Assembly: GCA_964016885.1 (NCBI GenBank)
Contig: CAXHJY010001477.1
Span: 248,001 to 312,000 of the forward strand
Direction of reading: 5' to 3'
Length of the DNA stretch: 64,000 nt
DNA from: Eledone cirrhosa
Taxonomy: Eukaryota
This document shows positions 1,545 through 64,000 of this stretch, in pieces (within the stretch, counting starts at the first letter, position 1; the number at the start of each line of letters is the position of its first letter). The notes under the pieces were generated by a model. It saw only the letters and a list, made by a program, of their open reading frames with translations, was not told the origin of the DNA and did not search any database. The translations under genes were made by a program, and so were the position numbers.

Positions 1545-1565
1545 GTTGGTTAAAAGAGGAAGGAC

Positions 1566-11168: not shown

Positions 11169-11323
11169 CTGTAAAAAAAGAAAAAGAAATTACCATGATG
11201 ACTTACTATATATACATATACAATTATATATGTATGATTATATGTGTATATATATATATCTATTTGATTATATGTGTATATATATATACATGTATGATTA
11301 TATGTATATGGTTATATGTACAT

Positions 11324-11664: not shown

Positions 11665-11677
11665 TATACATGTATGA

Positions 11678-11715
<38 letters not shown>

Positions 11716-11717
<2 letters not shown>

Positions 11718-13343: not shown

Positions 13344-13980
13344 ATCATCATCATCATCATCGTTTAACGTCCATCTTCCAGGCGAGCATGGGTTTAGACA
13401 AGAATTGTCCCACGTGAGACAAGATTGGTCGTCTCACTCGTATAGGACTGTCTGGCAGGTTTTCTATGGCTGGATGCTCTTCCTAACACCAACCACGCTT
13501 ACAGTGTGGGGCTGGGAGGTTTTTACTGTGTTGCCTACACGGCCACATTACAGCGTGGATCGTGTGTTTTTTGTCGTGACACCTACACGACCTCATTTGT
13601 TTCGGACTGGATGTTGTGGTACCAACATAACTTTACATTGAAAGGGGTGGTGTGGATGGGGTGGGGGTAGTGGGACGGGGGTGTATTTTGTTAGAGGTGC
13701 CTACTGACTGTAGGTTTCACTTTGTATTTAGGTAAAGCGGGTCTTCTGTATTACTGTGTAGCGCCAAAGATCACGGTCTAGTGACATTGTCTTGGAGAGG
13801 TGTAAGTGTGTGAGGTCGGAATTTAGCAAGTCGTCCCAGGTTTTTCTGGGTCTGCCTACTCCGTAGCTACCGTCTATTTTTATTGCCCTGCACTTTTTTA
13901 TACAGCTGTCGTCTTTCATGCGCATCATGTGACCATACCAACGCAGTCTTCTCTCAAGTAAACAGCATCAGATCCCTCTT
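13344..13980 (-). mobile_element. RTE LINE 3' fragment
   Basis: RRLRWYGHMMRMKDD...GRPRKTW, 3' UTR and (ATG)n tail. Nearly identical to 35980-36600. Confidence 0.9.
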
Positions 13981-14146
13981 ATATATACGTAACTAGATCT
14001 ACCAACTCGTAATGTTATAATATTATAAAATTAAATCAAATTATTTAACACATGTGAAGTCATTCTTTTTCTTTTTTTCATATATATATATATATGATTA
14101 TATGTGTTTATATATACATGTATGATGTATACATATATATATATAT

Positions 14147-29800: not shown

Positions 29801-32800
29801 AGTTTGTTGGGGCTGGTAAGGGCTAGAAGGACAGTAGTAGTAATGTCAGTGTTTGTTGGGGCTGGTAAGGTCTAGAAGGACAGTAGTAGTAATGGCAGAG
29901 TTTGTTGGGGATAGTAAGGGCTAGAAGGACAGTAGTAGTAATGGCAGAGTTTGGTGGGGTTGGTAAGGGCTAGAAGGACAGTAGTAGTAATGGCAGAGTT
30001 TGGTGGGGTTGGTAAGGGCTAGAAGGACAGTAGTAGTAATGTCAGTGTTTGTTGGGGCTGGTAAGGTCTAGAAGGACAGTAGTAGTAATGGCAGAGTTTG
30101 TTGGGGATAGTAAGGGCTAGAAGGACAGTAGTAGTAATGGCAGAGTTTGGTGGGGTTGGTAAGGGCTAGAAGGACAGTAGTAGTAATGGCAGAGTTTGGT
30201 GGGGTTGGTAAGGGCTAGAAGGACAGTAGTAGTAATGTCAGTGTTTGTTGGGGCTGGTAAGGTCTAGAAGGACAGTAGTAGTAATGGCAGAGTTTGTTGG
30301 GGATAGTAAGGGCTAGAAGGACAGTAGTAGTAATGGCAGAGTTTGGTGGGGTTGGTAAGGGCTAGAAGGACAGTAGTAGTAATGGCAGAGTTTGGTGGGG
30401 TTGGTAAGGGCTAGAAGGACAGTAGTAGTAATGGCAGAGTTTGTTGGGGCTGGTAAAGGCAAGAAGGACAGTAGTAGTAATGTCAGTGTTTGTTGGGGCT
30501 GGTAAGGGCTAGAAGGACAGTAGTAGTAATGGCAGTGTTTGTTGGGGCTGGTAAGGGCTAGAAGGACAGTAGTAGTAATGGCAGAGTTTGTTGGGGCTGG
30601 TAAGGGCTAGAAGGACAGTAGTAGTAATGGCAGAGTTTGTTGGGATTGGTAAGGGCTAGAAGGACAGTAGTAGTAATGGCAGAGTTTGTTGGGACTGGTA
30701 AGGGCTAGAAGGACAGTAGTAGTAATGGCAGAGTTTGTTGGGGCTGGTAAGGGCTAGAAGGACAGTAGTAGTAATGTCAGTGTTTGTTGGGGCTGGTAAG
30801 GGCTAGAAGGACAGTAGTAGTAATGGCAGTGTTTGTTGGGGCTGGTAAGGGCTAGAAGGACAGTAGTAGTAATGGCAGAGTTTGTTGGGGCTGGTAAGGG
30901 CTAGAAGGACAGTAGTAGTAATGGCAGAGTTTGCTGGGGCTGGTAAGGGCTAGAAGGACAGTAGTGGTAATGGCAGAGTTTGTTGGGGCTGGTAAATGTA
31001 GAAGGACAGTAGTGGTAAAGGCAGAGTTTGTTGGGGCTAGTGAGGGCTAGAAGGACAGTAGTAGCAATGATAGAGTTTGTTAGGGCTGGTAAGGTCTAGA
31101 AGGACAGTAGTAGTAATGGCAGAGTTTTGGGGGGTTGGTAAGGGCTAGAAGGACAGTAGTAGTAATGGCAGAGTTTGTTGGGGCTGGTAAGGGCTAGGAC
31201 AGTAGTAGTAATGGCAGAGTTTGTTGGGGATAGTAAGGGCTAGAAGGACAGTAGTAGTAATGGCAGAGTTTGGTGGGGTTGGTAAGGGCTAGAAGGACAG
31301 TAGTAGTAATGGCAGAGTTTGGTGGGGTTGGTAAGGGCTAGAAGGACAGTAGTAGTAATGGCAGAGTTTGTTGGGGATGGTAAGGGCTAGAAGGACAGTA
31401 GTAGTAATGTCAGTGTTTGTTGGGGTTGGTAAGGGCTAGAAGGGCAGTAGTAGTAATGGCAGAGTTTGTTGGGGCTGGTAAGGGCTAGAAGGACAGTAGT
31501 AGTAATGGCAGAGTTTGTTGGGGTTGGTAAATGTAGAAGGACAGTAGTGGTAAAGGCAGAGTTTGTTGGGGCTAGTGAGGGCTAGAAGGACAGTAGTAGG
31601 AATGATAGAGTTTGTTAGGGCTGGTAAGGTCTAGAAGCACAGTAGTAGTAATGGCAGAGTTTTGGGGGGTTGGTAAGGGCTAGAAGGACAGTAGTAGTAA
31701 TGGCAGAGTTTGTTGGGGTTGGTAAGTGCTAGAAGGGCAGTAGTAGTAATGGCAGAGTTTGTTGGGGTTGGTAAGTGCTAGGACACTAGTACTAATGGCA
31801 GAGTTTGGTGGGGTTGGTAAGGGCTAGAAGGACAGTAGTAGTAATGGCAGAGTTTGTTGGGGTTGGTAAGTGCTAGGACACTAGTAGTAATGGCAGAGTT
31901 TGGTGGGGTTGGTAAGGGCTAGAAGGACAGTAGTAGTATTGGCAGAGTTTGTTGGGGCTGGTAAGGGCTAGAAGGACAGTAGTAGTAATGGCAGAGTTTG
32001 TTGGGGCTAGTAAGGGCTAGAAGGACAGTAGTAGTAATGGCAGAGTTTCTTGGGACTGGTAAGGGCTAGAAGGAGAGTAGTAGTAATGGCAGAGTTTGTT
32101 GGGGCTAGTAAGGGCTAGAAGGAGAGTAGTAGTAATGGCAGAGTTTCTTGGGACTGGTAAGGGCTAGAAGGACAGTAGTAGTAATGGCAGAGTTTGTTGG
32201 GGCTAGTAAGGGCTAGAAGGAGAGTAGTAGTAATGGCAGAGTTTGTTGGGGATGGTAAGGTCTAGACGGACAGTTGTCATAATGACAGAGTTTGTTGGGG
32301 CTAGTAAGGGCTTGAAGGACAGTAGTAGTAATGTCAGAGTTTGTTGGGATTGGTAAGGGCTAGAAGGACAGTAGTAGTAATGGCAGAGTTTGTTGGGACT
32401 GGTAAGGGCTAGAAGGCCAGTAGTAGTAATGGCAGAGTTTGTTGGGGCTGGTAAGGGCTAGAAGGACAGTAGTAGTAATGGCAGAGTTTGTTGGGGATAG
32501 TAAGGGCTAGGACACTAGTAGTAATGGCAGAGTTTGTTGGGGCTGGTAAGGGCTAGAAGGACAGTAGTAGTAATGGCAGAGTTTGTTGGGGCTGGTAAGG
32601 GCTAGGACACTAGTAGTAATGGCAGAGTTTGTTGGGGCTGCTAAGGGCTAGAAGGACACTAGTAGTAATAGCAGAGTTTGGTGGGGTTGGTAAGGGCTAG
32701 AAGGACAGTTGTAGTAATGGTAGAGTTTGTTGGGGCTGGTAAGGGCTAGAAGGACAGTAGTAGTAATGGCAGAGTTTGTTGGGGATAGTAAGGGCTAGAA

Positions 32801-33192
32801 GGACAGTAGTAGTAATGGCAGAGTTTGTTGGGGTTGGTAAGGGCTAGAAGGACAGTAGTAGTAATGGCAGAGTTTGTTGGGGTTGGTAAGGGCTAGAAGG
32901 ACAGTAGTAGTAATGGCAGAGTTTGTTGGAGTTGGTAAGGGCTAGAAGGACAGTAGTAGTAATGGCAGAGTTTGTTGGGGTTGGTAAGTTCTAGAAGGAC
33001 AGAGGTAGTAATGGCAGAGTTTGTTGGGATTGGTAAGTGCTAGAAGGACAGTAGTAGTAATGGCAGAGTTTGTTGGGGCTGGTAAGGTCTAGAAGGACAG
33101 TAGTGGTAATGGCACAGTTTGTTGGGGCTAGTAAGGAGTAGAAGGACAGTAGTAGTAATGGCAGAGTTTGTTGGGGCCAGTAAGGGCTAGAA
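20870..33192 (+). repeat. 49-bp G-rich tandem array, ~12.3 kb (~250 units)
   Basis: Unit GGGCTAGAAGGACAGTAGTAGTAATGGCAGAGTTTGTTGGGGCTGGTAA. No ORF of 60 aa or more in the track. Confidence 0.97.
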
Positions 33193-33231
33193 CAGTGTCT
33201 TTCATTAGAAATATGGCAATGAAAGGGTTAA
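33193..33231 (-). mobile_element. Terminus of a second TTAA-type MITE family abutting the 49-bp array
   Basis: CAGTGTCTTTCATTAGAAATATGGCAATGAAAGGG|TTAA. Its reverse complement matches 35306-35340. Partial repeat at 33242-33278. Confidence 0.5.
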
Positions 33232-33615: not shown

Positions 33616-33954
33616 ATCATCATCATCATCATTTTACACCAGCTTTTCCCTGCTTGCAAGGGTGGGATGGGAACTGATTCTGGCTTGATTTCTACAGCTG
33701 GATGCCCTTCCTAACACCAACCTCATTTACAGTGAGTGCTGGGTGCTTTTTGGCCGTGGCACCTCCATGTCCACTTTGCAGTGGAATGATATGGACCCCA
33801 GTCCTTATCATCTCATTTCTACAGCTGAGTAAACTGGAGCAATGTGAAATAAAGTGTCTTGCTCAAGGAAACAACACATCACCCGGTCTGAGAATTGAAC
33901 TCACAACCTTTCGATTGCAAGGTCAATGCTCTAACCACTAAGCCATGTGCCTCC
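33616..33954 (-). mobile_element. tRNA/CORE/RTE-tail SINE
   Basis: Reverse complement of the 11324-11664 family. Confidence 0.88.
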
Positions 33955-34616
33955 ATTGGTAGAAAATATGAAGAACAAATGATGATAACTGAAACAATGT
34001 AATGTTTTCCCCAGTATATTTTGGTATGATGTTTCAGGGCTATCAGATGTAAAGTTGAAACAGTCCAAAACAATCTCTGAAATCTCTGATTGGTCATTTA
34101 TTGAAAATAAAATTTTAATATTTTTTAGAAATGTTATCAAGCATTTATTGAATAACCCAATGTGATAGTTTAATGAGCAGTTATTAATTTAAACTCTTTG
34201 CTTCCTTTTCTTCTTTTAACACTTATTGTTCCCTTTGCCCTACTACATTAGATGTCTATACATTACCCTATGTACTATACATACATTTTTGATGAGTTGT
34301 AGTGCACCTGAGCATTGTTCACAATATTTTCATTATTATTATTATTATTAATTGTCAAAGTCCTTTTGTCACAGCTTGTGACCTTATCAGTGACTGCTCA
34401 CTCATGATTTTTCTTTGTTCACACTTACTCCATCTTTTGTCACAGCTTGTGACCGTATCAATGATTATTACTCCTCATCATCTACACTTACTCCATCTAA
34501 TGCTGTGGTAAAAGAACTTTGACAATTATTTGTCTGATTAAGAAAACTGAAGTCAAACTCAGCAGATAGATGTTTTCATAGGCAGCATGACATTTCTAAA
34601 ACTTAAAATTGCTTAC

Positions 34617-34712: not shown

Positions 34713-34972
34713 CTAAAGTATTTAAATATAAACCAATAAATTTACAAAGAAATTGGAAAATTTCAAATACCAACACAAAAGAATTTTTTTATTAATCAAT
34801 CTTTTGTTCTAACTCCCAAAATGTAAACAAAAGTGTAAACTGCTATTTTGTTTTTCTTACTTTAATCTAGTTTTCACTCTTGTACTTTTTTTGCATTTTA
34901 CTAACATTTCCAAACCAATACTAACCACAACTTTAACATAAACAGTGTATTTCAAATAATTTTGAAAATAAT

Positions 34973-35160
34973 TGTTTCTACTTTTGGCACAAGGCCAGCA
35001 ATTATCCAGTACATTACTGGTACTTTATTTTATCGACCCCATAAGGATGAAAGGCAAAGTTAACCTCGGCGGGATTTGAACTCAGAATGGCAAGGGCCGT
35101 AACTCTATGCGTCAAAGCATGGCGTCCAACCCTCTACCGATACTGCCAATTCACCGCCCT
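34973..35160 (-). mobile_element. tRNA-derived Nin/Deu-domain SINE with 18-bp TSD
   Basis: GCCTTTCATCCTTATGGGGTCGATAAAATAAAGTACCAG domain. TSD AATAATTTTGAAAATAAT at 34955-34972 and 35161-35178. Confidence 0.8.
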
Positions 35161-35619
35161 AATAATTTTGAAAATAATGAAGAATTTTGATGAATTTAGT
35201 AACATAACTTAACATTCTCATTATTAAGGTAATTAATGTTTAGAACATAAAAATTTTAGCATAAAATTATAATGGACAGTTTTTAGATAAATATAAACAC
35301 TTTATTCCTTTCATTACCATTTTTCTAATGGAAGACACTGCTCCAAATAATTTCAAAATAATTTTGAAAATAACCAAGAATTTGGAGTGATTTAATAAAG
35401 TAACTAACTTCCTCATTATTAAGTTGGTATTTGGAACATAACTTAATAAAGGTTTTTACATAAAATTATGATGGAAGATTTTCAGAAAAATATAAAAATT
35501 TTGAAATAAACAGTTTTGTATCAGCACTGCCATCATCACTCTCACTATCACCATGGTTACCATCATCACCCATCATTGCCTTTGCAATTGTCAGTCATGT
35601 AAGAATTATTTTCCTTTAG

Positions 35620-35823: not shown

Positions 35824-35979
35824 AATTATTTTCCTTTAGACCTACAATCAGGAACATGTGGCTAGGAGCCACATGTGGATCTTTAACCCTATGGCTTTTA
35901 CATTACTCTATATATACTATTATATTTTCATAGTAAAGGCTTTACATCACATAATATCTCACATAACATTTACATTACT

Positions 35980-37092
35980 ATCATCATCATCATCATCATC
36001 GTTTAACGTCCATCTTCCACGCTAGCATGGGTTTGGACGGGAGTTTGCCCACTTGAGGCAAGAGTGGTTGTCCTGCTCGCATAGGACTGTCTGGCGGGTT
36101 TTCTACAGCTGGATGCCCTTCCTAACACCAACCACATTTACAGTGTGGGGCTGGGAGGTTTTTACCGTGTTGCCTACACGGCCACATTACAGCGTGGACT
36201 GTGTGTTTTTTTGTTGTGACACCTACACGATCTCATTTGTTTCGGCCTGGATGTTGTGGTACCAACATAACTTCACATTTAAGGGGGGGGGGGGGTATTT
36301 TGTTAGAGGTGCCTACTGACTATAGTAGGTTTCACTTTGTACTTAGGTAAGGCGGGTCTTCTCTATTACTGTGTAGCGCCAAAGATCTCAGTCCAGTGAC
36401 ATTCTCTTGGAGAGGTGTAAGTGTGTGAGGTTGGAATTTATCAAGTCGTCCCAGGTTTTTCTGGGTCTGCCTACTACGTGGCTACCGTCTATTTTTATTG
36501 CCCTGCACTTTGTTATACAGCAGTCGTCTTTCATGTGCATCACGTGACCATACCAACGTAGCCTTCTCTCGAGTAAACAACATCTGATCCCTCTTATTCC
36601 TAATTTTTCCCTTAGTTCATTTATGCTTTGTCGTTCACGTATATTACTATTACACATCCAGCGGAGCATGCAAGCTTCGTTCCTCTCCAGTCTGCGTATA
36701 TCCTCTGCACACAATGCCCAGGTCTCACTGCCATGCAACATTGCTGTTCGTATGCAGGCATCATACAGCCTGCCTTTCATTTTTAGAGAAAACCCATTAG
36801 CGGCCAATAGTGGTATAAGCTCTCTGAACTTTTTCAATCCAGTTCTGACTCTAGGTACTGTACTTTCAGAGCACCCTCCCCCACTGCTGATTTTGTCACC
36901 TAGGTAACAGAAGCTGTCCACTATTTCTATAGAACCATCTGTGCAATGGAATGAGCTAGTATTCTGTGGGCACTTGCTGCTACTTATTGCACCAGAGCAC
37001 CGGCCACATATAAAATCTATATTCTTAGTTAGCTTACCTGTGATCCCACTACATCTTTTATGCACCCATACTTTGAATTTGGGACATAAAAT
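35980..37092 (-). mobile_element. 5'-truncated RTE LINE inserted in a 72-bp unit
   Basis: ORF 36388..37065 (HKRCSG...FCYLG...HGSETW...RLRWYGHV), 3' UTR and (ATG)n tail. Confidence 0.9.
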
Positions 37093-37094
37093 AC

Positions 37095-37443
37095 TATCAT
37101 CATCATCATCATCATTTCATTTTATGTCCTCTTTTTCCCTGCTTGCAAGGGTGGGACGAGAACTGATGCTGGCTTGATTTCTACAGCTGGATGCCCTTCC
37201 TAACACCAACCTCATTTACAGTGAGTGCTGGGTGCTTTTTTGCCGTGGCACATCCACGACCACTTTGCAGTGGAATGATAGGGACCTCAGTCCCTATCAT
37301 CTCATTTCTACAGCTAAGTAAACTGGAGCAATGTGAAATAAAGTGTCTTGCTCAAGGAAACAACACATCACCTGGTCTGAGAATTGAACTCACAACCTTT
37401 CGATTGCAAGGCCAATGCTCTAACCACTAAGCCATGTGCCTCC
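37095..37443 (-). mobile_element. tRNA/CORE/RTE-tail SINE
   Basis: Same family as 11324-11664 and 33616-33954. Confidence 0.88.
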
Positions 37444-37721
37444 ATCACTATATATATACTATTGTATTTTCACAGTAAAGGCTTTACCTCACATAATATC
37501 TCATATAACATCTCGTATACGAGAGACGTGTGTTGACGTGTGTGAACAAGCTCGGCTACCGAGTCGGATTTACTTACTCAAAAAATGAGTTTTGATTAAT
37601 TTTTTATACTGTAATATACGTTAACCCCTTACCTTGGTCGTCAAACTTTGAGTTTATTTATTTTCGCCCCTTTTTGGGGCGAATTTTCCAGTTAAAAATT
37701 TATTACGGCAAACTAATAGAA

Positions 37722-39389
37722 ATGGACGGAATTTTCACATCTCATCCTAACGTGAAAGCCACGCCCCCTAAGAAAGGTGATACAGAGAAGCTAGAAGCAC
37801 AAGGCTCTAAGTCTTCCCTCCTCACTTCTGCAAAAGAAAAATGGAACACGGAATTAAAAGAAAAATTTGTAAAAATGGGTGAAAACCCAGAAAGTCACAT
37901 AAACGCAGACAAAAACAACAACGACAATAACAGCAACAGTGACAACACCAACCAAGGAATAAATAACGATAACACCAAACAAAGCGAACCCACTACTGGT
38001 GCCTCCTTTGCACAGGCGGTCCGGAAAACACAATCCTGCAAGCAACTGGACATTACAACCCTGAGAGAAAAGATGAAGGAAGCGAAACAGTATGTAACTT
38101 TCAAAGAAGGAGGAGACTTCACAATCACCTCCCCACAAGAAATCAAAAGAGACACGACGCTAAGAACGATATCCTTCAGAACAATTTCCAACATAACAAG
38201 GAAACCAACTCAATTATCCCAAAAAGAGATTGAGCTGGTCCTAAAAAATGTGTGGAGTGATATATCGTTCATACAAAAAGAGCCACTCTATGGGAATATA
38301 ACGGTCCTAATGAAGGATCAATTGACGGCCAGGAAATACTCTGTGGCGCCAATTGTTTCCAAGCTACATACATTTTTCCCCACATATTTAGGGAAAAGAA
38401 CGCAGAAGATAAGGGTCTCCGGAATCCGGCCAAATGCATGCATTTCCTGGGTACTAACAGGATTTTTAGAAAATGAGGACGGAATCCTCTCAGTAGGAGA
38501 AGTCACCACAGACGTTTTCGGCGGTTTGAGCGTGGAGGTTCTGGTCCAAATGAGACCAGAACGAATAGCTAGAATACCACAGAGGGTGTCCCTCGATGGA
38601 GAAACATTTATATACATTTCAGCTGAGGGTAGGAGGCCCATATGTTACTACTGTTCAAGCAGGGGTCATCTAAGGGCTGCTTGTCCTCAATTGACAAAAA
38701 AAAAGGCTCTTTTGCCTACACCCCACACACCACCACCGCCACCACCACCACCACAACAACAACAAAAACAACACGGAAAAATAACACAAGACACGGCCCC
38801 ACCCAAAACAACTCCCAAAACACACACAATTACAACAAAACCCCACCTAGTGACGAAGAGGGGACCCTTCCAACCTGTAAAAAGAAAAAAAAGAAAGCAC
38901 CACTCGAACATAAACGAAACAAACACACAACCACCAACAAAAACAAAACAAACAGAACAAACAAAATCCGCCCCACCCCAAAACATAACACATACAACAA
39001 AACGTAAGCACACACAAGAACAACAAACAAACACAACACAAATAAAACAGTATACATACATTAACACAAATAACAAAGAACTCGTAAAAACAATACACAA
39101 AGACCCTTTGGTGGAAACTGAAGGGCAATTCTTTGCAAGCGCGGCCAACAAACCGCATTTAAAAATGATAAGACTCCCAATGGACACCTATGCAAAACTA
39201 AGAGAGAACTTTCCTGAGGACGTGGGGAAAACATGTACTCGACCCTATAACCGCGTCCTCTTGAAACGTTTCCCCACCCACACCTCACCAAACACCCCCA
39301 CTCCACCACAGAACAACACCCCACCAAACAACCCCTCCAATACGCCCATGGATATTGTGCAACCTGCTCCTCAGGAGCCGAACAGGTAG
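37722..39389 (+). CDS. Tx1 ORF1 (gag-like nucleic-acid chaperone with CCHC knuckle, Pro/Thr-rich C-terminus)
   Basis: Open frame from the first ATG at 37722. SFAQAV motif, CYYCSSRGHLRAAC, FQPVKRKKRK. Confidence 0.85.
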   Translation: MDGIFTSHPNVKATPPKKGDTEKLEAQGSKSSLLTSAKEKWNTELKEKFVKMGENPESHINADKNNNDNNSNSDNTNQGINNDNTKQSEPTTGASFAQAVRKTQSCKQLDITTLREKMKEAKQYVTFKEGGDFTITSPQEIKRDTTLRTISFRTISNITRKPTQLSQKEIELVLKNVWSDISFIQKEPLYGNITVLMKDQLTARKYSVAPIVSKLHTFFPTYLGKRTQKIRVSGIRPNACISWVLTGFLENEDGILSVGEVTTDVFGGLSVEVLVQMRPERIARIPQRVSLDGETFIYISAEGRRPICYYCSSRGHLRAACPQLTKKKALLPTPHTPPPPPPPPQQQQKQHGKITQDTAPPKTTPKTHTITTKPHLVTKRGPFQPVKRKKRKHHSNINETNTQPPTKTKQTEQTKSAPPQNITHTTKRKHTQEQQTNTTQIKQYTYINTNNKELVKTIHKDPLVETEGQFFASAANKPHLKMIRLPMDTYAKLRENFPEDVGKTCTRPYNRVLLKRFPTHTSPNTPTPPQNNTPPNNPSNTPMDIVQPAPQEPNR

Positions 39390-39410
39390 GTCCTTCCTCT
39401 TTTAACCAAC

Positions 39411-42400
39411 ATGGCTGATATAAGAGTTGGGTGTCTGAATGTACGCGGCCTGGGACTGTCTTGGAAACAAGGCAAACTTTTAAACGATCTCAGGTCGCAT
39501 AGAATGGAAGTAATGGCTATTTGCGAGTCCAGGATCAGCAGCGAGCACCAACTGGCGCCCCTCTTCGACGACTTTGAGATCTTCGCATCTCTCTGTCAAC
39601 CGGGGGGTGGGGGTGGAGTTGTCGTTCTGCTGCGAAAACACCTGGGCCTCGCCATACAGAAGGTGCACCTGGACCCGGAGGGTCGACTGGTGGTTTTAGA
39701 CGTCGGCAGTAGTGAAAGTGGAGCCCTTAGACTAATAGCTGTGTACGCCCCTTTTTGGGCAGCGCGGCCGGAATACTTCCAACGTCTGGAAACTTTTCTG
39801 GGAACGTCCCGCTCCTTGCTTTTAGTGGGGGACTGGAATGGTATCCTGGATGCACGTTGGGACTATGTAGGGGCATGTGCCAATAGAGGGGGGTGTAAAA
39901 GCCTCAAAAGGTTAATCGGCCGATTTGACCTGGCCGATAGATATCGACTAGATTTTCCGACTGTACCACTATGGACGTGGACCAATCGCAGCGGAACATC
40001 TAGGTCGTACCTAGATAGGGTCCTAGTTAGAGAGAAGGATAGGGACACATTTAGCTGTCCAAAAATGTTCATGGTTGACTATTCGGATCACAAGTTAGTG
40101 ACCTGCATAGCCAACCTTGATAGAACCCATAGACAGGGACCCGGTTACTGGAAGCTGAACTTGTCCTTACCGAGAAGCAAAGCTTACAGTAAACGGATTA
40201 GCACGTTAGTTAAGCAGAGTTTGACAGGGGCAATTGTCAACAACAGGTGGTGGAGCTCTCTTAAGAGAGCAATTAGAATAGAATCGATAGGTTTTAGTCA
40301 GGAATTAGCAAGGGATAGGAACAAGACGGAAAGGGAATTAGTAGATAGAGTAGAAGAGGCGATTAGGAGTGGCAATGTAGCCGGCGTGCTGGCATCAAGA
40401 ATGGCCTTAGACCAGTTCTTTGAGGTGAAGCATGAAGGCTGCGTTGTCAGGAGTAAAATACGTGCTCTGGGTAATGAGGGAGCCAAAGCTGTGAGCTGGG
40501 CCCGAGTGACAGAGGCAAAAAGTGGGAACAAGTCCACGATTCGGTCTTTGAAGGACCAGGATGGGCGTGTGATCCTTGAACCTGGGCAGATGTGTGCGGC
40601 CTTTCAGCGGCACTTTGCACGACTGTTCGAGAGGGGCGGCGCGCCGGGTGAGACTATGGATTTCAATCCATACCTCGACGGTCTGTCGCGCCTCTCGGAC
40701 GCGGAGGCGAAGTCCTGCGAAAGGACGATTTCAGCTGCTGAGATAGGGGCGGCGCTGAGCCAATGCGGCAAACGCAAATCCCCGGGTCTCGATGGTCTAC
40801 CATACGAGCTATATGTAGCGATGCCGGACTTGTTCTCCGATATCCTCGAAGCGGTCTACTGCAACTGGCAGCAGAACGGGAGAATTCCCAGTTCTGTGAC
40901 CAAGGGCGTAGTTACGCTGGTGAGGAAGGATGAGAACAAGGGGGATTACATAAGTAACTTCAGGCCCATAACTCTGCTAAATACAGAGTTAAAGATTTTG
41001 GCCAAGGTGTTAGCGAAGAGGTTGGCGCTTGTCGTCGGAAACCTGGTGGGAGAAGCGCAGACATGCGCAATCCCGTCCAGGTCCATTCACGACAATCTCC
41101 ACCTTATGCGATACATCATAGAGAGGGTAGGGAATGAACCCGGCTTTGGTGGGGCCCTGATCAACTTGGATCAATCTAAAGCTTTCGATAGGGTTGACCA
41201 TCGTTACCTGGATGCGGTGCTCGCGGCGGCAGGCTTCGGACCCGTTTTCAGGGGTTGGATTGCTGCGATGCACAGCAGCAACGTCTGCTCAAGGGTCAAG
41301 GTGAACGGCCACCTCTTGGAGCCGTTCCAAATCATGCGATCCATCCGACAGGGATGCCCTCTCTCCTCCCTACTGTATGTGCTGGCTCTTGAGCCACTAC
41401 TGCGGAAGTTGGAGCGGTTGCAGGGCATCCCTTTGGAACCGGGATTGCAGAAAGCGGCGTTCAGGAGCCAAGCTGAACCGGGACAAGTCCATCGGTTTGC
41501 AACTCGGAACATGGAGAGGCAAACCGATGCCCTCCAACGACGTCGTCGGACGCTGGACGGAGGGCCCGGTGAAGCTGCTTGGGGTCTGGTTCGGACCAGA
41601 CCTCCAGGTGGAGAAAAACTGGAACGAGGTAACGGCCAGGGTGTTTGCACTCACCCAGAAGTGGGCCCAGTGCAAACTATCCCTGAAAGGTCGAGCGGAG
41701 GTGGCGAATACTTATATAGCATCCGTCATCTACTACCGCTTGACCGTCATGCCTTGCCCAGTGAAAAGACTCGCCAAAATGGAGTGCGCGCTGTTCCAAT
41801 TTCTTTGGAACAAGCGAACCCCTTTGGTGAGGAGATCCATCTGCTGTCAACACCCTTCGAAAGGAGGGCTGGGGATGCCGTGGCTACAGATGCGTAAACA
41901 CGCATTAAGGCTACAGCACCTCCAGGTATTCCTCACCGGTCAACCGGTGTGGGCCCCATTTGTGAGGCGAGCCTTTCCCAGACTCGTCTCGCTCACCGAG
42001 CTGCAATCCTGGGTCAAGCAAAGACCGAGAAAAGTGGGCGACTGGCACATTGAATGTGCCCAGGCACTCACGGCCCTCTGGAAAGCGGACCCGGCAATCA
42101 GTGGAGACTCCACCTCGACATTCTATAGAGGGTTGGTACGCAGCAGGTGCGACGATGCTCTCGGAGAAGCTCTAGGCATGGAGGAAGATGAACTGGCCAG
42201 TCTGTTCTGTAGGACGTTTGGCCCTGGACCGATGGACAACTTCCAAAAGTCCCTGGCTTGGCAGTGCTACCGAGGGGCTCTACCCGTTCGAGACAAGCTC
42301 CACAGGCATGGGAGCCTGGGTAGAGATCCTTTGAATAAGATCTGTCCGAGATGCGTGCATGATGACGAAACCGTTGCGCACGCATTCGTACACTGCCCAG

Positions 42401-42758
42401 GCATTGCTGACCTGTGGGCTATGTGGAACGACTACTGTCGAGGGTGGGACCAATCCGGTTGACCACCGAGTCCATTGTCACGATCAAACCGCCTCCCCCT
42501 TTCAAAAACGAAGGAGAGGCGGTTTTTCTCTGTGTGATAGCTATGGCTAAAGAAGTTGTATGGTGGACGAGGCTGAAAGAGCTGAGGTCAGACACCTTTC
42601 TCTCCGGCCAACAACTGGTCCCCTTTTTCAAATACCATTTTAAAAGAAGGATCAGAATGGAGAGAGAGGTGCTCTACCCCAGCAAGTTTTACGAAAGGTG
42701 GGTGAAAGTAGGGAGAATGGCCAGAGTGAATGAGTCTTCTCTCTATATCAGCCTGTAG
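39411..42758 (+). pseudogene. Tx1 ORF2 (APE-RT-zinc finger) with YADD-region deletion and frameshifts
   Basis: GDWN, SDH, KSPGLDGLP, NFRPITLLN, LDQSKAFDRV and RQGCPLS, then a jump at ~41460 into SGAKLNRDKS in another frame. KGGLG and CPRC..ETVAHAFVHC follow. Second frameshift at ~42420. Confidence 0.9.
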
Positions 42759-42992
42759 GTGAAAGAAGAGGAAAAAGAGGAGACGAGGGAAGCACCTACC
42801 CTTTGTGCTCCTGAGGAGAAGGGTTGCACATTTTTTCCGGGGTGTGTGCGACCCATGTTAATGCCCCCTCCCTATTGAGGACTTCGTTTGTTGTTATTTC
42901 ATTGTTATATTTTTGTACTCGTTAATTATATGTAAACTTCCCCCCTTGTATCTGTCCCTACCTTTTGTGCCCTAGTGGCAAATAAAGAAACC

Positions 42993-44618
42993 ACTCTATA
43001 TATACTATTGTATTTTCACAGTAATGTCTTTACCTCACATAATATCTCACATAACATTTACATTACTCTATATATACTATTGTATTTTCACAGTAAAGGC
43101 TTTACCTCACATAACATTTACATTACTCTATATATACTATTGTATTTTCACAGTAAAAGCTTTACCTCACATAATATCTCACATAACATTTACATTACTC
43201 TATATATACTATTGTATTTTCACAGTAAAGGCTTTACCTCACATAATATCTCACATAACATTTACATTACTCTATATATACTATTGTATTTTCACAGTAA
43301 AGGTTTTACATCACATAATATCTCACATAACATTTACATTACTCTATATATACTATTGTATTTTCACAGTAAAGGCTTTACCTCACATAATATCTCACAT
43401 AACATTTACATTACTCTATATATACTATTGTATTTTCACAGTAAAGGCTTTACCTCACACAATACCTCACATAACATTTACATTACGCTATATATACTAT
43501 TGTATTGCCACAGTAAAGGCTTTACCTCACATAATATCTCACATAACATTTACATTACTCTATATATACTATTGTATTTTCACAGTAAAGGTTTTACATC
43601 ACATAATATCTCACATAACATTTACATTACTCTATATATACTATTGTATTTTCACAGTAAAGGCTTTACCTCACATAATATCTCACATAACATTTACATT
43701 ACTCTATATATACTATTGTATTTTCACAGTAAAGGCTTTACCTCACATAATATCTCACATAACATTTACATTACTCTATATATACTATTGTATTTTCACA
43801 GTAAAGGCTTTACCTCACATAATATCTCACATAACATTTACATTACTCTATATATACTATTGTATTTTCACAGTAAAGGCTTTACCTCACATAATATCTC
43901 ACATAACATTTACATTACTCTATATATACTATTGTATTTTCACAGTAAAGGCTTTACCTCACATAATATCTCACATAACATTTACATTACTCTATATATA
44001 CTATTGTATTTTCACAGTAAAGGCTTTACCTCACATAATATCTCACATAACATTTACATTACTCTATATATACTATTGTATTGCCACAGTAAAGGCTTTA
44101 CCTCACATAATATCTCACATAACATTTACATTACTCTATATATACTATTGTATTTTCACAGTAAAGGTTTTACATCACATAATATCTCACATAACATTTA
44201 CATTACTCTATATATACTATTGTATTTTCACAGTAAAGGCTTTACCTCACATAATATCTCACATAACATTTACATTACTCTATATATACTATTGTATTTT
44301 CACAGTAAAGGCTTTACCTCACATAATATCTCACATAACATTTACATTACTCTATATATACTATTGTATTTTCACAGTAAAGGCTTTACCTCACATAATA
44401 TCTCACATAACATTTACATTACTCTATATATACTATTGTATTTTCACAGTAAAGGCTTTACCTCACATAATATCTCACATAACATTTACATTACTCTATA
44501 TATACTATTGTATTTTCACAGTAAAGGCTTTACCTCACATAACATTTACATTACTCTATATATACTATTGTATTTTCACAGTAAAGGCTTTACCTCACAT
44601 AATATCTCACATAACATT
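42993..44618 (+). repeat. 72-bp tandem array, roughly 23 units, highly homogeneous
   Basis: Same unit as 3504-5390. Runs directly into the MITE right half (GAATCTATGAGATTTTGATG...). Confidence 0.97.
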
Positions 44619-44677
44619 GAATCTATGAGATTTTGATGTTATTTTTTTTAGGACTATACCTTAACATCATTATGAGT

Positions 44678-44753
44678 ATCCTTATGGGGTCGATAAAATA
44701 AAGTACCAGTAATGCACTGGGTAATTGCTGGCCTTGTGCCTAAAGTAGAAACA
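44678..44753 (+). mobile_element. 5'-truncated Nin/Deu SINE inside the MITE right half
   Basis: ATCCTTATGGGGTCGATAAAATAAAGTACCAG...AAACA. TSD ATTATGAGT at 44669-77 and 44754-62. Confidence 0.75.
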
Positions 44754-45059
44754 ATTATGAGTGGCTGATTACGGCTGGTTTGAACAGAAAGAGGTGAGAG
44801 AATTCTGGCTGGATATCCCTGGTTTAAATCTTAAAGAGTTAACCTATTATTTTAAGTGGTTCTTAAAGGAGCTGAAATTTTCTTGTGTCTTTTCCACGAT
44901 ATGTTGTCACTAATCATTCACCAGCCACTTTACTGAGTGTACTGGGTGTACTTTATAATGTCACCAGCACTTCCACTTTACAGAGTGGACTGGGTGTATT
45001 TTATGATGGCACCATCACTAGAGAGGTTGTCATGTCCTTGATAAGATTAAAGTGTATTT

Positions 45060-45889: not shown

Positions 45890-47291
45890 AATAGTAGGGG
45901 TTCACCAAGGCTTAACCCCCTCCTGTTTATTATTGTCCTACAGGCTATAACAGACGAGTTGAAGACTGGCTGCCCATGGGAACTTCTCTATGCAGATGAT
46001 CTAACGCTCATAGCTGAATCAATGGTGGAACTAGAGAAGAAATTCGAAACATAGAAGCATGGCCTAGAATTAAAAGGCCTAAAGTTAACTTGTCTAAGAC
46101 TAAAGTTCTAGTATGTAGATAGGAAAATAGGGTACAGGTGCCTCTGGGAAATGGCCATGCTCAGTGTGTAGGAAAGGAGTAAGCAGAAATTCCATATTAT
46201 GTCCCAAATGCATACTATGGGTACATAAAAGATGTAGTGGGATCATAGGAAAGCTTTCTAAGAATGTAGATTTTATATGTGGTCGATGCTCAGGTGCAAT
46301 AAGTAGCAAGTGCCCACAGGATACTAGCTCCTTCAAATGCCCAGACAGATCTATAGAAATAGTAGACACCTTCCATTACCTGGGTGACAAAATCAGCAGT
46401 GGAGGAGGGTGCTCTGAAAGTACAGTAGCCAGAGTTAGAACGGAATGGAAAAGAGTCAGAGAGCTAATACTGCTGTTGGCCACAAGAGGTTTTTCTCTAA
46501 AAGTGAAAAGCAGATTGTATGATGCTTGTATATGAATGGTGATATTACATGGTAGTGAGACTTGGGCGTTGTGTGCTGAAGACTGGCGTAGATTAGAAAG
46601 AAATGAAGCTTGCATGCTCTGATGGATGTGTAATAGTAATGTGTGCGAATGGCAAAACATAAACGAATTGAGAGAGAGACTGAGCATAAGAGGTATCAAA
46701 TGTTGTGTTCTGGAGAGGAGATTGTGTTGGTATGGACATGTGATGCGTATGGAGGACGACAGCTGTATAAAAAAGTGCAGGGCAATGAAAATTGATGGAA
46801 GCTGTGGAGTGGGTAGACCAAGGAAAACCTGGGACGCAGTGATAAAAGCTGACCTTGCTCACCTACACCTCTCTAAGACAATGTCACTGGATCGAGATCT
46901 TTAGTGCTATGCAGTTATACAGAAGACCGCCTTCCCTTGCATACAAACTTAAATCAACAGTCAGTAGGCACCTTTTAACCCAATATACACCCCACCCCAT
47001 ATGCCATATTCTACCCTCCCACTTCCGTCCAATATCGAGTGGTCATGTAGGTGTCATGATAAAAAACATCCAGTCCACACTGTAAAGTGGTCATGTAGGT
47101 GACACGGTAAAAAGGCTCCCCGTCCATACTTTAAATGTGGTTAGTGTTAGGAAGGGCATCCAGCTGTAGAAAACCTGCCAGGGACAGTTCTGTACGAGCA
47201 AGACATGGTCACCCGACCAATCTCGCCTCAAGTGGGACAAACCCATCCAACCCATGCTAGCGTGGAAGATGGACGTTAAACGATGATGATG
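45890..47291 (+). mobile_element. 5'-truncated RTE LINE
   Basis: GVHQG..., WELLYADDL, CSVC..CPKC..HKRC, YLG, ERRLCWYGHVMRM, tail (GAT)n. Confidence 0.9.
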
Positions 47292-47993: not shown

Positions 47994-50900
47994 ATGGATG
48001 AACTGGGGGATAAACTAGGTATAAGAGGAATCAGATGTAGTGTGTAGGAGAGGAGACTGTGATGGTATAGACATGTGATGTGTATGGATGGACTGAGAGA
48101 GAAACTAGGTATAAGAGGAATCAGATGTAGTGTGTAGGAGAGGAGACTGTGTTGGTATAGACATGTGATGTGTATGGATGGAGAGAGAAACTAGGTATAA
48201 GAGGAATCAGATGTAGTGTGTAGGAGAGGAGACTGTGTTGGTATAGACATGTGATGTGTATGGATGAACTGGGAGAGAAACTAGGTATAAGAGGAATCAG
48301 GTGTAGGAGAGGAGACTGTGTTGGTATAGACATGTGATGTGTATTGATGGAGAGAGAAACTTGGTATAAGAGGAATGAGATGTAGAGTGTAGGAGAGAAG
48401 ACTGTGTTGGTATAGACATGTGATGTGTATGGATGGAGAGAGAGAGAAACTAGGTATAAGAGGAATCAGATGTAGAGTGTAGGAGAGAAGACTGTGTTGG
48501 TATAGACATGTGATGTGCATGGATGAACTGAGAGAGAAACTAGGTATAAGAGGAATCAGATGTAGTGTGTAGGAGACGAGACTGTGTTGGTATAGACATG
48601 TGATGTGTATGGATGGAGAGACAAACTAGATATAAGAGGAATCAGATGTAGTGTGTAGGAGAGGAGACTGTTGGTATAGACATGTGATCTGTATGGATGA
48701 ACTGAGAGAGAAACTAGGTATAAGAGGAATCAGATGTAGAGTGTAGGAGAGGAGACTGTGTTGGTATAGACATGTGATGTGTATGGATGGACTGAGAGAG
48801 AAACTAGGTATAAGAGGAATCAGATGTAGTGTGTAGGAGACGAGACTGTGTTGGTATAGACATGTGATGTGTATGGATGGAGAGAGAAACTAGGTATAAG
48901 AGGAATCAGATATAGTGTGTAGGAGACGAGACTCTGTTGGTATAGACGTGTGATGTGTATGGATGGAGAGAGAAACTAGGTATAAGAGGAATCAGATATA
49001 GTGTGTAGGAGACGAGACTCTGTTGGTATAGACATGTGATGTGTATGGATGGAGAGAGAAACAAGGTATAAGAGGAATCAGATGTAGGAGAGGAGACTGT
49101 GTTGGTATAGACATTCTATGTGTATGGATGAACTGAGAGAGAAACTAGGTATAAGAGGAATCAGATGTAGAGTGTAGGAGAGGAGACTGTGTTGGTATAG
49201 ACATGTGATGTGTATGGATGGAGAGAGAAACTAGGTATAAGAGGAATAAGATGTAGTGTGTAGGAGAGAAAACTGTGTTGGTATAGACATGTGATGTGTA
49301 TGGATAGAGAGAGAGAGAAACTAGGTATGAGAAGAATCAGATGTAGAGTGTAGGAGAGGAGACTGTGTTGGTATAGACATGTGACGTGTATGGATGGAGA
49401 TGGAAACTAGGTATAAGAGGAATCAGATGTAGTGTGTAGGAGAGAAGACTGTTGGTATAGACATGTGATGTGTATGGATGAACTGGGAAAGAAACTAGGT
49501 ATAAGAGGAATCAGATGTAGTGTGTAGGAGAGGAGACTGTGTTGGTATAGACATGTGATGTGTATGGATGGAGAGAGAAACTAGGTATAAGAGGAATCAG
49601 ATGGAGTGTGTAGGAGAGGAGACTGTGTTGGTATAGACGTGTGATGTGTATGGATGGACAGAGAGAAACTAGGTATAAGAGGAATCAGATGTAGTGTGTA
49701 GGAGAGGAGACTGTATTGGTATAGACATGTGATGTGTATGGATGGAGAGAGAAACTAGGTATCAGAGGAATCAGATGTAGTGTGTAGGAGAGGAGACTGT
49801 ATTGGTATAGACATGTGATGTGTATGGATGGAGAGAGAAACTAGGTATAAGAGGAATCAGATGTAGTGCGTAGAAGACGAGACTGTGTTGGTATAGACAT
49901 GTGATGTGTATGGATGGAGATGGAAACTAGGTATAAGAGGAATCAGATGTAGTGCGTAGGAGACGAGACTCTGTTGGTAGAGAAATGCGATGTGTATGGA
50001 TGGAGAGAGAAACTAGGTATAAGAGGAATCAGATGTAGTGTGTAGGAGAGGAGACTGTGTTGGTATAGACATGTGATGTGTATGGATGAACTGGGAGAGA
50101 AACTATGTATAAGAAGAATCAGATGTAGTGTGTAGGAGAGGAGACTGTGTTGGTATAGACATGTGATGTGTATGGATGGACAGAGAGAAACTAGGTATAA
50201 GAGGAATCAGATGTAGTGTGTAGGAGAGGAGACTGTGTTGGTATAGACATGTGATGTGTATGGATGGACAGAGAGAAACTAGGTATAAGAGGAATCAGAT
50301 GTAGTGTGTAGGAGAGGAGACTGTGTTGGTATAGACATGTGATGTGTATTGATGGACTTACAGAGAAACTAGGTATAAGAGGAATCAGATGTAGCGTGTA
50401 GGAGAGGAGACAGTGTTGGTATAGACATGTGATGTGTATGGATGGAGAGAGTAAGTAGGTATAAGAGGAATCAGATGTAGTGTGTAGGAGAGGAGACTGT
50501 GTTGGTATAGACATATGATGTGTATGGATAGAGAGAGAGAGAAACTAGGTATGAGAAGAATCAGATGTAGAGTGTAGGAGAGGAGACTGTGTTGGTATAG
50601 ACATGTGACGTGTATGGGTGGAGATGGAAACTAGGTATAAGAGGAATCAGATGTAGTGTGTAGGAGAGAAGACTGTTGGTATAGACATGTGATGTGTATG
50701 GATGGACTGAGAGAGAAACTAGGTATAAGAGGAATCAGATGTAGGAGAGGAGACTGTGTTGGTATAGACATTCTATGTGTATGGATGAACTGAGAGAGAA
50801 ACTAGGTATAAGAGGAATCAGATGTAGAGTGTAGGAGAGGAGACTGTGTTGGTATAGACATGTGATGTGTATGGATGGAGAGAGAAACTAGGTATAAGAG

Positions 50901-53900
50901 GAATCAGATGTAGTGTGTAGGAGAGGAGACTGTGTTGGTATAGACACGTGAGGTGTATGGATGGACTGAGAGAGAAACTAGGTATGAGAGGAATCAGATG
51001 TAGTGTGTAGGAGAGGAGACTGTGTTGGTATAGACATGTGATGTGTATGGATGGACAGAGAGAAACTAGGTATAAGAGGAATCAGATGTAATGTGTAGGA
51101 GAGGAGACTGTGTTGGTATAGACATGTGATGTGTATGGATGGACAGAGAGAAACTAGGTATAAGAGGAATCAGATGTACTGTGGAGAAGAGTAGACTGTG
51201 TTGGTATAGACATGTGATGTGTATGGATGAACTGAGAGAGAAACTAGGTATAAGAGGAATCAGATGTAGTGTGGAGAAGAGTAGAATGTGTTGGTATATA
51301 ACATGTGATGTGTAAGGATGGAGAGAGAAACTAAGTATCAGAGGAATCAGATGTAGTGTGTAGGAGAAGAGACTGTATTGGTATAGACATGTGATGTGTA
51401 TGGATGAACTGGGAGAGAAACTCGGTATAAGAGGAATCAGATGTAGTGCGTAGGAGACGAGACAGTGTTGGTATAGTCATGTGATGTGTATGGATGGAGA
51501 GAGAAACTAGGTATAAGAGGAATCAGATATAGTGTGTAGGAGAGGAGACTGTGTTGGTATAGACATGTGTTACGTATGGATGGACTTACAGAGAAACTAG
51601 GTATAAGAGGAATCAGATGTAGCGTGTAGGAGAGGAGACTGTGTTGGTATAGACATGTGATGTGTATGGATGGAGAGAGAAACAAGGTATAAGAGGAATC
51701 AGATGTAGGAGAGGAGACTGTGTTGGTATAGACATTCTATGTGTATGGATGAACTGAGAGAGAAACTAGGTATAAGAGGAATCAGATGTAGAGTGTAGGA
51801 GAGGAGACTGTGTTGGTATAGACATGTGATGTGTATGGATGGAGAAAGAAACTAGGTATAAGAGGAATCAGATGTAGTGTGTAGGAGAGGAAACTGTGTT
51901 GGTATAGACATGTGATGTGTATGGATAGAGAGAGAGAGAAACTAGGTATGAGAAGAATCAGATGTAGAGTGTAGGAGAGGAGACTGTGTTGGTATAGACA
52001 TGTGATGTGTATGGATGAACGGAGAGAGAAACTAGGTATAAGAGGAATCAGATGTAGTGTGTAGGAGAGGAGACTGTGTTGGTATAGACATGTGATGTGT
52101 ATGGATGAACTGAGAGAGAAACTAGGTATACGAGGAATCAGATGTAGTGTGTAGGAGAGGAGAATGTGTTGGTATAGACATGTGATGTGCATGGATGGAG
52201 AGAGAAACTAGGTATAAGAGGAATCAGATGTAGTGTATAGGAGAGGAGACTGTGTTGGTATAGACATGTGATGTGTATGGATGGACAGAGAGAGAAACTA
52301 GGTATAAGAGGAATCAGATGTAGTGTGTAGGAGAGGAGACTCTGTCGGTATAGACACGTGATGTGTATGGATGAACTGGGAGAGAAACTAGGTATAAGAG
52401 GAATCAGATGTAGTGTGTAGGAGAGTAGACTGTGTTGGTATAGACATGTGATGTGTATGGAGGACAGAGAGAAACTAGGTATAAGAGGAATCAGATGTAG
52501 TGTGTATTAGAGGAGTCTGTGTTGATATATACATGTGGTGTGTATGGATGGAGAGAGAAACTAGGTATAAGAGGAATCAGATGTAGTGTGTATGAGAGGA
52601 GACTGTATTGGTATAGACATGTGATGTGTATGGACGGACTGAGAGAGAAACTAGGTATAAGAGGAATCAGATGTAGTGTGTAGGAGAGGAGACTGTATTG
52701 GTATAGACATGTGACGTGTATGGATGGAGAGAGAAACTAGGTATAAGAGGAATCAGATGTAGGGTGTAGGAGAGGAAACTGTATTGGTATAGACATGTGA
52801 TGTGTATGGATGGAGAGAGAAACTAGGTATAAGAGGAATCAGATGTAGTGTGTAGGAGAGGAGACTGTGTTGGTATAGACATGTGATGTGTATGGATGGG
52901 GAGAGAAACTAGGTATAAGAGGAATAAGATGTAGTGTGTAGGAGAGGAGATTGTGTTGGTATAGACACGTGATGTGTATGGATGAACTGAGAGAGAAACT
53001 AGGTATAAGAGGAATAAGATGTAGTGTGTAGGAGAGGAAACTGTATTGGTATAGACATATGATGTGTATGGATGGACTGAGGAGAAACTAGGTATCAGAA
53101 GAATCAGATGTAGTGTGTAGGAGAGGAGACTGTGTTGGTATAGACATGTGATGTGTATGGATGAACTGGGAGAGAAACTAGGTATAAGAGGAATCAGATG
53201 TAGTGTGTATGAGAGGAGACTGTGTTGGTATAGATTGTGATGTGTATGGATGAACGGAGAGAGAAACTAGGTATAAGAGGAATCAGATGTAGTGTGTAGG
53301 AGAGGAGACTGTGTTGGTATAGACATGTGATGTGTATGGATGAACTGAGAGAGAAACTAAGTATACGAGGAATCAGATGTAGTGTGTAGGAGAGGAGAAT
53401 GTGTTGGTATAGACATGTGATGTGCATGGATGGAGAGAGAAACTAGGTATAAGAGGAATCAGATGTAGAGTGTAGGAGAGGAGACTGTGTTGATATAGAC
53501 ACGTGATGTGTATGGATGGACTGAGAGAGAAACTAGGTATAAGAGGAATCAGATGTAGTGTGTAGGAGAGGAGACTGTATTGGTATAGACATGTGACGTG
53601 TATAGATGGAGAGAGAAACTAGGTATAAGAGGAATCAGATGTAGGGTGTAGGAGAGGAGATTGTGTTAGTATAGACATGTGATGTGTATGGATGGAGAGA
53701 GAAACTAGGTATAAGAGGAATCAGATGTAGTGTGTAGGAGAGGAGACTGTGTTGGTATAGACATGTGATGTGTATGGATGGACAGAGAGAGAAACTAGGT
53801 ATAAGAGGAATCAGATGTAGTGTGTAGGAGAGGAGACTCTGTCGGTATAGACACGTGATGTGTATGGATGAACTGGGAGAGAAACTAGGTATAAGAGGAA

Positions 53901-62900: not shown

Positions 62901-64000
62901 GAGAGGAGACTGTGTTGGTATAGACATGTGATGTGTATGGATGGAGAGAGAAACTAGGTATAAGAGGAATCAGATGAAATGTGTAGGAGAGGAGACTGTG
63001 TTGGTATAGACATGTGATGTGTATGGATGGACTGAGAGAGAAACTAGGTATGAGAGGAATCAGATGTAGTGTGTAGGAGAGGAGACTGTGTTGGTATAGA
63101 CATGTGATGTGTATGGATGGACTGAGAGAGAAACTAAGAATAAGAGGAATCAGATGTAGTGTGTAGGAGAGGAGACTGTGTTGGTATAGACATGTGATGT
63201 GTAAGGATGGAGAGAGAAACTAGGTATAAGAGGAATCAGATGTAGTGTGTATGAGAGGAGACTGTGTTGGTATAGTCATGTGATGTGTATGGATGAACTG
63301 AGAGAGAAACTAGGTATAAGAGGAATCAGATGTAGTGTGTAGGAAAGGAGACTGTGTTGGTATAGACATGTGATGTGTATGGATGGAGAGAGAATCTAGG
63401 TATAAGAGGAATCAGATGTAGTGTGTATGAGAGGAGACTGTGTTGGTATAGTCATGTGATGTGTATGGATGAACTGAGAGAGAAACTAGGTATAAGAGGA
63501 ATCAGATGTAGGAGAGGAGACTGTGTTGGTATAGACATGTGATGTGTATGGATGAACTGGGAGAGAAACTAGGTATAAGAGGAATCAGATGTAGTGTGTA
63601 GGAGAGGAGACTGTGTTGGTATAAACATGTGATGTGTATGGATGAACTGAGAGAGAAACTAGGGATAAGAGGAATCAGATGTAGTGTGTAGGAGAGGAGA
63701 CTGTGTTGGCATAGACATGTGATGTGTATGGATGAACTGGGAGAGAAACTAGGTATAAGAGGAATCAGATGTAGTGTGTAGGAGAGGACACTGTGTTGGT
63801 ATAGACATGTGATGTGTATGGATGGAGAGAGAAACTAGGGATAAGAGGAATCAGAGGTAGTGTGTAGGAGAGGAGACTGTGTTGGCATAGACATGTGATG
63901 TGTATGGATGAACTGGGAGAGAAACTAGGTATAAGAGGAATCAGATGTAGTGTGTAGGAGAGGACACTGTGTTGGTATAGACATGTGATGTGTATGGATG
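47994..64000 (+). repeat. ~90-bp (86-92) tandem array of at least 16 kb derived from RTE ORF coding sequence
   Basis: Unit GAACTGAGAGAGAAACTAGGTATAAGAGGAATCAGATGTAGTGTGTAGGAGAGGAGACTGTGTTGGTATAGACATGTGATGTGTATGGAT. Aligns to RTE 46665-46754. Confidence 0.97.

Follow-up and report, generated by a model that had tools for sequence, protein, structure and literature searches.

How a retrotransposon comes to occupy the same base of a tandem repeat in two places is the question raised by a stretch of 64,000 nucleotides from Eledone cirrhosa (contig CAXHJY010001477.1, positions 248,001 to 312,000), referred to here as the window. It is a repeat-rich eukaryotic sequence with four large tandem arrays of 48-, 49-, 72-, and 90-bp units. 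The 72-bp units belong to a transposable element of the miniature inverted-repeat kind (MITE) and are joined to two copies of an L1/Tx1-like retrotransposon without long terminal repeats (non-LTR). Copy 2 (37512-42992, plus strand) is full-length and is part of a composite of MITE, array, and retrotransposon at 35883-44842 (locus 2). Copy 1 (1-3502, minus strand), on the side called locus 1, is cut by the window edge and carries a stop codon and frameshifts in both open reading frames (ORFs). The copies differ by 80 substitutions in 3441 aligned bases (2.3%; 97.7% identity), and tblastn found no further pieces of the family in the 64-kb window. Judging from the sequence, we consider it likely that the endonuclease of the element recognizes the 72-bp repeat and that the copies were inserted independently, by target-primed reverse transcription, into MITEs that were already fixed.

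The retrotransposon and its junctions with the MITE

In both window copies the 5' junction reads ...ATAACAT/CTCGTATACGAG (the slash marks the junction) and follows base 65 of the unit. The original prediction that both copies begin at one position of the unit was therefore correct, although its start coordinates were each one base off (37512 on the plus strand and 3502 on the minus strand); its end of copy 2 at 42992 stands. By position alone, the chance of a shared 5' junction is 1 in 72. The only 3' junction within the window, that of copy 2, reads ...AATAAAGAAACC/ACTCT... and lies at unit base 1. As the 5' junction follows base 65 while the 3' end meets base 1, 7 bp of the target (TTACATT) are missing at the copy 2 insertion. 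A short target-site duplication was rejected, none being visible at copy 2. Kojima (2015) calls a Tx1 family target-specific when more than 20% of its flanks are of one sequence type; here all three junctions in the window, and both junction-spanning contigs among the 24 pieces listed from other sequencing runs, were at the unit.

Those runs were searched for the same junctions. Parts of the element were found in 12 of the 16 listed runs, with no RNA run listed as containing it (which says nothing about expression), and the contigs of four runs were compared with 37447-43064, giving 24 listed and 115360 further pieces. The two junction-crossing contigs among the 24 both came from run X5, which has another organism label and belongs to another study than the window. 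Contig 9 spans 37482-38083 and the other 42680-43014, and both enter the unit at the same bases as in the window. The unit sequence in the 5'-junction contig is exactly 30 bases long; the 3'-junction contig ends just before unit base 23, which is T or G in the window arrays. If contigs break at 31-mer branches, these ends suggest that in X5 a single 5' flank is dominant and that the 3' junction exists in at least two haplotypes. In run X2, which may be related to the source of the window, the five listed contigs of the ORF1 region had depths of 1959-2244 and the 3' untranslated region 2577 at 42921, so most copies look full-length, which is consistent with efficient targeted insertion. Three diverged contigs had depths of 11-21; on the assumption that these are single-copy, the family would number about 100-200 mostly full-length copies. 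Run X7 contains a more diverged family, the listed contigs being about 87% identical, with no junction contig among the matches listed. The restriction-site-associated DNA (RAD) reads of X14 pile up at restriction sites and gave no interpretable junction row among the matches listed.

The MITE was delimited by searching for its 18-nt terminal consensus with up to three mismatches. Five matches were found (5382-5399, 10288-10305, 10488-10505, 35883-35900, and 44825-44842), against 0.08 expected, and none of 100 shuffled sequences reached five. All three termini previously claimed to bound the arrays were among them, except that the left terminus of locus 1 (5382-5399, minus strand) starts with TGAA instead of TTAA. 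The left terminus of locus 2 (35883-35900, plus strand) consists of TTAA and a degenerate inverted repeat with three mismatches to the consensus; the MITE body and right terminus (44825-44842) occupy 44619-44842 on the plus strand, and TTAA is present at both outer ends. The termini of piggyBac elements begin with CC. After TTAA, the termini found here start with CCC, TCC, or CTC, and these CC-type inverted repeats are unlike the ends of Kolobok elements, which begin with RR (PMC6004289; this and the other articles cited by PMC number were available in part, and what is attributed to them refers to those parts). The sequence CCCTTTAG represents the end type that would match a piggyBac transposase partner of the MITE.

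A short single-unit MITE with neither array nor retrotransposon, previously placed at 10292-10501, does exist at 10288-10505 (plus strand). It has TTAA at both ends and inverted arms that are 89% complementary. Its TTAA duplication is shown by a paralogous empty site (35359-35523, plus strand; 73-74% identity) containing a single TTAA at 35419-35422; no empty site for the whole composite was found. The last unit and MITE body of locus 2 are 84.8% identical to the short MITE over the aligned bases. In addition, 93 contigs of run X7 have TTAACCCTTTAGCATTTACATT directly before the unit, and the unit is therefore a sub-terminal part of a common MITE.

The arrays differ in length. Upstream of copy 2 there is one 72-bp unit, followed by three bases of the next (35905-35979, plus strand), and the 65-bp part of a unit that forms the 5' flank of the retrotransposon and ends at unit base 65 (37447-37511, plus strand). 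The 5' array of locus 1 (3503-5377, minus strand) has 26 units and a 65-bp part and is 2.3% from the common unit, so the inequality described earlier (about 27 versus about 2 units) is real. Downstream of copy 2, the 3' array (42993-44618, plus strand) starts at unit base 1 and contains 22 units and 66 bp, 1.1% from the common unit. The 7-mer TAACATT occurs at the terminus of locus 1 and again at the border between the last unit and the MITE body, which suggests that the array arose by slippage between these repeats.

From these observations the following course of events can be proposed. The sub-terminal 72 bp of the MITE would have been amplified by slippage between the two TAACATT direct repeats, multiplying the target site. 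The apurinic/apyrimidinic endonuclease (APE) domain would nick the bottom strand opposite ...ACATT/ACTCT... (5'-AGAGT/AATGT-3'), between unit bases 72 and 1, and reverse transcription would be primed there. Cutting of the top strand 7 nt upstream would result in a 7-bp target truncation in place of a duplication. The nick positions are deduced from one 3' and two 5' junctions; a 65-bp duplication, indistinguishable from the 7-bp truncation inside an array, is less plausible. The repeat would thus serve as a harmless landing site that renews itself.

Uniform junctions could also arise if the element carried the unit by read-through of an upstream or downstream array, RNA-target pairing instead of endonuclease specificity then fixing the insertion point. 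Such pairing aids priming in other site-specific long interspersed elements (LINEs), and the 3' end of copy 2, which has no poly(A), is joined directly to the unit. However, both flanks run into a full MITE structure with different termini and not into random DNA, and as a replacement for endonuclease specificity we find this explanation quite improbable. It is compatible with recognition of the repeat by the endonuclease and is possibly part of it.

The coding content identifies the element. ORF2 (39411-42758, plus strand) encodes an APE endonuclease, a reverse transcriptase (RT), and a C-terminal zinc motif, with Pfam matches to PF03372 (E-value 2.8e-11), PF00078 (5.5e-19), and PF13966 (zf-RVT; 4.7e-7). 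In copy 2 it is broken by a deletion of about 31 codons with a frameshift near 41456-41461, by which the YADD motif of the RT is lost, and by a second frameshift near 42420-42456 (both located by tblastn); both window copies are now defective. Among solved structures, human L1 ORF2p was the best match (E-value 3.7e-37, residues 4-662), while R2 proteins matched at 1e-15 or weaker and in the RT only, in a database (PDB) that represents few LINE clades. The APE catalytic positions line up with those of the L1 endonuclease (EN), and the nearest named protein in the protein search was from Argonauta hians (64%). By its APE, RT, and zinc domains and its proximity to L1 ORF2p, the element is a member of the L1 group of non-LTR retrotransposons. 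ORF1 (37722-39389, plus strand) has a CX2CX4HX4C zinc knuckle, a C-terminal half of low complexity, and no Pfam match; the Atlas clusters closest to it consist of CCHC/RNA-binding proteins (scores 0.89-0.92, a lead only). In animals, a CCHC/RRM-type ORF1, as opposed to Transposase_22, is associated with the Tx1 clade (PMC5203782), and the domain content and ORF1 type make membership of this clade likely. Apart from a weak plant match named by similarity, protein searches and cluster look-ups yielded no named Tx1 reference.

Some further features of the element were noted. It opens with a 12-bp palindrome without mismatches (37512-37523), and the bases at its very start bear a weak resemblance, possibly by chance, to the MITE body after the last unit. 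The A-run behind the ORF1 zinc knuckle (38688-38696) has nine A in copy 2 and eight in copy 1; eight A are likewise present in run X2 (at a depth of 1699 out of 10930), and the difference is probably homopolymer slippage. Neither end of the element has a significant RNA fold (z -1.93 and +1.10). Pattern scans of metagenomes and viruses yielded 117 loci, none related to the element or the MITE by blastn or tblastn, and neither a search for viral relatives nor a scan of prokaryote genomes for the 72-bp unit gave matches.

Probable independent insertion and its alternatives

The shared junctions alone do not tell whether the two loci received the retrotransposon separately. The claim that the sequence outside the terminal inverted repeats is unrelated was borne out on the left side, to which the comparison is limited because copy 1 runs off the window: the DNA outside the two left termini gave a local score of 24, within the shuffled range (mean 18.8, maximum 28). 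With unrelated outer flanks, a simple segmental duplication was rejected. The left termini of the two loci differ at 6 of 18 bases and the retrotransposons at 2.3%, a disparity with P = 2e-6 under one copied composite, which makes a single transposed composite unlikely. In ORF1, 22 of the 45 substitutions are synonymous, against 12.7 expected if the base and CpG spectrum is kept the same (P = 0.0016; pN/pS 0.30), and this excess implies different active source lineages. Because the MITE ends diverge more than the elements and ORF1 shows a synonymous excess, independent targeted insertion appears more likely than a single copied composite. The targeting of a MITE-borne repeat, as put forward in the original prediction, is accordingly supported by shared junctions, the X5 contigs, the divergence of the ends, and the ORF1 excess, a support that falls short of proof.

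Insertions nested in the locus 2 composite, which had been missed earlier, bear on the order of events. A 1.47-kb minus-strand block (35980-37446) splits the two 5' units. It consists of an RT-encoding LINE 3' fragment with an ATC-repeat tail (35980-37092, minus strand; 78.6% identical to 46194-47291 and 86.8% to 13344-13982), which we take to be RTE-like and which is overlapped by an ORF at 36388-37116, and of a repeat resembling a short interspersed element (SINE; 37099-37445, minus strand; 95.1% to 11322-11665 and 93.9% to 33616-33956), so labeled on account of its tRNA-like head. A 77-bp SINE-like insert (44678-44754) lies in the right arm, flanked by TTATGAGT repeats that form an 8-bp duplication, and is 96% identical to 34968-35048. 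At locus 1, the matching 5' part is free of nested insertions. The nested SINE is 5-6% and the RTE piece 13-21% from their window paralogues, and copy 2 differs from the five X5 contigs tallied at 23 of 2582 bases (0.9%). The comparison is rough, the former values being copy-to-copy and the latter contig-to-copy distances, but it suggests that the retrotransposon came late into a long-resident MITE.

The same features speak to the proposal that a piggyBac transposase moves MITE, array, and retrotransposon as a whole, both loci then descending from one composite. In its favor, the outer ends of locus 2 both carry TTAA, the short MITE has its TTAA duplication, and Octopus vulgaris is listed with recently active piggyBac families (PMC13282606, Table 1). 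However, the left and right termini of the locus 2 composite differ at 6 of 18 bases, and together with the nested insertions this mismatch makes recent piggyBac movement doubtful. The left ends of the two loci are likewise too unlike for elements 2.3% apart, and no transposase was recognized among the window ORFs of at least 150 amino acids, six of which were scanned against Pfam. Compared with a mobile composite of the Tx1C kind, locus 2 thus has unlike ends, and the two loci differ in left ends and 5' content. Recent piggyBac mobilization of the composite, suggested in the original prediction, is not supported, and descent of both loci from one transposed composite is very improbable.

Several points weigh against independent targeted insertion. 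The number of junctions is small (two 5' and one 3' in the window). The X5 contigs may be orthologous to this locus, and contigs lose rare flanks, with 6433 loose-end rows beyond the matches listed. The EN hairpin loop has the L1 length, which is two residues less than that of the grafted Tx1L loop, and gives no positive sign of specificity. The prevalence of full-length copies also fits copying at the DNA level. ORF2 lacks a synonymous excess (10 of 31 substitutions versus 9.6 expected, P = 0.51), and the differences between the copies cluster in 37900-38700, an interval picked post hoc (34 of 801 bases versus 46 of 2640, P = 1.3e-4). Because ORF2 shows no excess and the signal is clustered, gene conversion is an alternative.

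Under this alternative, which the original interpretation left out of consideration, chance insertion into the 72-bp array would have happened once or a few times, and the copies would have passed from array to array through gene conversion or ectopic recombination, with homology on both sides provided by the units and with inherited junctions. It accounts for the identical junctions, for the mostly full-length copies indicated by the X2 depths, for the mosaic structure of copy 1, and for a composite with unlike ends, the right terminus of which resembles the left terminus of locus 1 (2 of 18 bases different). On the other hand, the synonymous excess of ORF1 requires that, at some point in the past of the two copies, retrotransposition took place under selection. 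Copy 1 lacks the deletion that copy 2 has in ORF1, and so, it seems, do the contigs of X2 and X5, in which 61 additional letters precede 38844; the units beside the 5' junctions have no derived variant in common. We regard spread by recombination as unlikely and continue to favor independent insertion into the repeat.

The mosaic of copy 1 has the following pattern. Within 37900-38700, comparison with X5 contig 10 gives at least 18 differences over 637 bases; further downstream copy 1 is near-identical to X5 contig 11, and at 38228 it carries an allele that is fixed in run X7.

Other repeats in the window

The 90-bp array (48012-64000, about 182 copies) is derived from the C-terminal stretch of a LINE RT; the beginning of the array can be aligned with about 36521-36668 of the RTE-like fragment (73-78% matches), making it a satellite from a coding LINE segment. 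The 48-bp array (5690-9328, about 76 copies) resembles SINE-like segments at 44925-45020, 17554-17627, and 11497-11552. The 49-bp array (20870-33231, about 252 copies) adjoins a terminus of the TTAA/CCCTTT type (33190-33231) with an inverted look-alike at 35302-35343, while the left end of this array showed no partner terminus. Two adjacent ORFs at 14459-16734, without Pfam matches, resemble a Penelope-type RT and a GIY-YIG nuclease, and an apparent long inverted repeat precedes them at about 11700-13100 (by eye).

Relation to known systems

Tx1L inserts within the internal tandem repeats of Tx1D and makes a 23-bp target duplication. The Xenopus Tx1 has Tx1D as its target, a non-autonomous family of piggyBac elements (PMC4494074, PMC6719617), and the analogy drawn earlier with the Xenopus laevis arrangement of Tx1L in Tx1D (Tx1C), an APE LINE in a non-autonomous piggyBac-type element, holds (PMC4494074, PMC1950540, PMC6719617). 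The present system differs in its cephalopod host, its unrelated 72-bp target, and its 7-bp truncation. Its EN loop is also shorter (PMC1950540), and its specificity is read from junctions, whereas Tx1L is sequence-specific.

The precedent is wider than the Xenopus case named in the original prediction, since crocodilian Tx1 families also have DNA transposons as preferred targets: Tx1-Mar inserts into Mariner-N4_AMi, and the site of Tx1-9_AMi lies in Harbinger, some 300 bp from the 5' end (PMC4494074). SINEU-2, likely mobilized by Tx1-Mar, shows target truncations as well as duplications (PMC4494074). Unlike the target described here, the crocodilian ones belong to other superfamilies, in other hosts, and are not described as amplified arrays in the available part of that article. 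An internal segment of a TTAA MITE amplified into a tandem repeat is known from Xenopus Xmix/Xstir (T2-MITE), the available account of which names no targeting LINE (PMC6004289). Xmix has Kolobok-type ends (AGGRR), in contrast to the CCC or CTC that follows TTAA here.

For Octopus vulgaris, 80 L1-Tx1 consensus families have been described, 13 of them recently active, with 421 insertions (PMC13282606). The available text and supplement of that study state nothing on the target sites of these families, and the available parts of PMC10294476 and PMC9004415 add nothing on targets. Our literature search, which left Repbase, the consensus library of PMC13282606, and subscription papers outside its scope, yielded no description of a cephalopod Tx1 family with a MITE repeat as its target; the present family may already have a name in Repbase or in that library.

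Taken together, this is probably a target-specific family and a cephalopod example of the published LINE-in-transposon strategy. A bolder reading, which we put forward tentatively and hold to be possible though below even odds, is that an octopod counterpart of Tx1L/Tx1D evolved independently, with some 100-200 nearly all full-length LINE copies at a single bond of a MITE minisatellite, a fixed 7-bp truncation, and slippage renewing the targets. If that arrangement were true, it would provide a new sequence-specific APE endonuclease with a loop of L1 length and a countable three-layer system of LINE on satellite on MITE. If targeting itself is confirmed, LINEs that target another transposon would extend from frogs and crocodilians to a cephalopod, one more target-truncating APE endonuclease would join the few open to the study of specificity, and MITE-derived satellites would be tied to safe landing sites.

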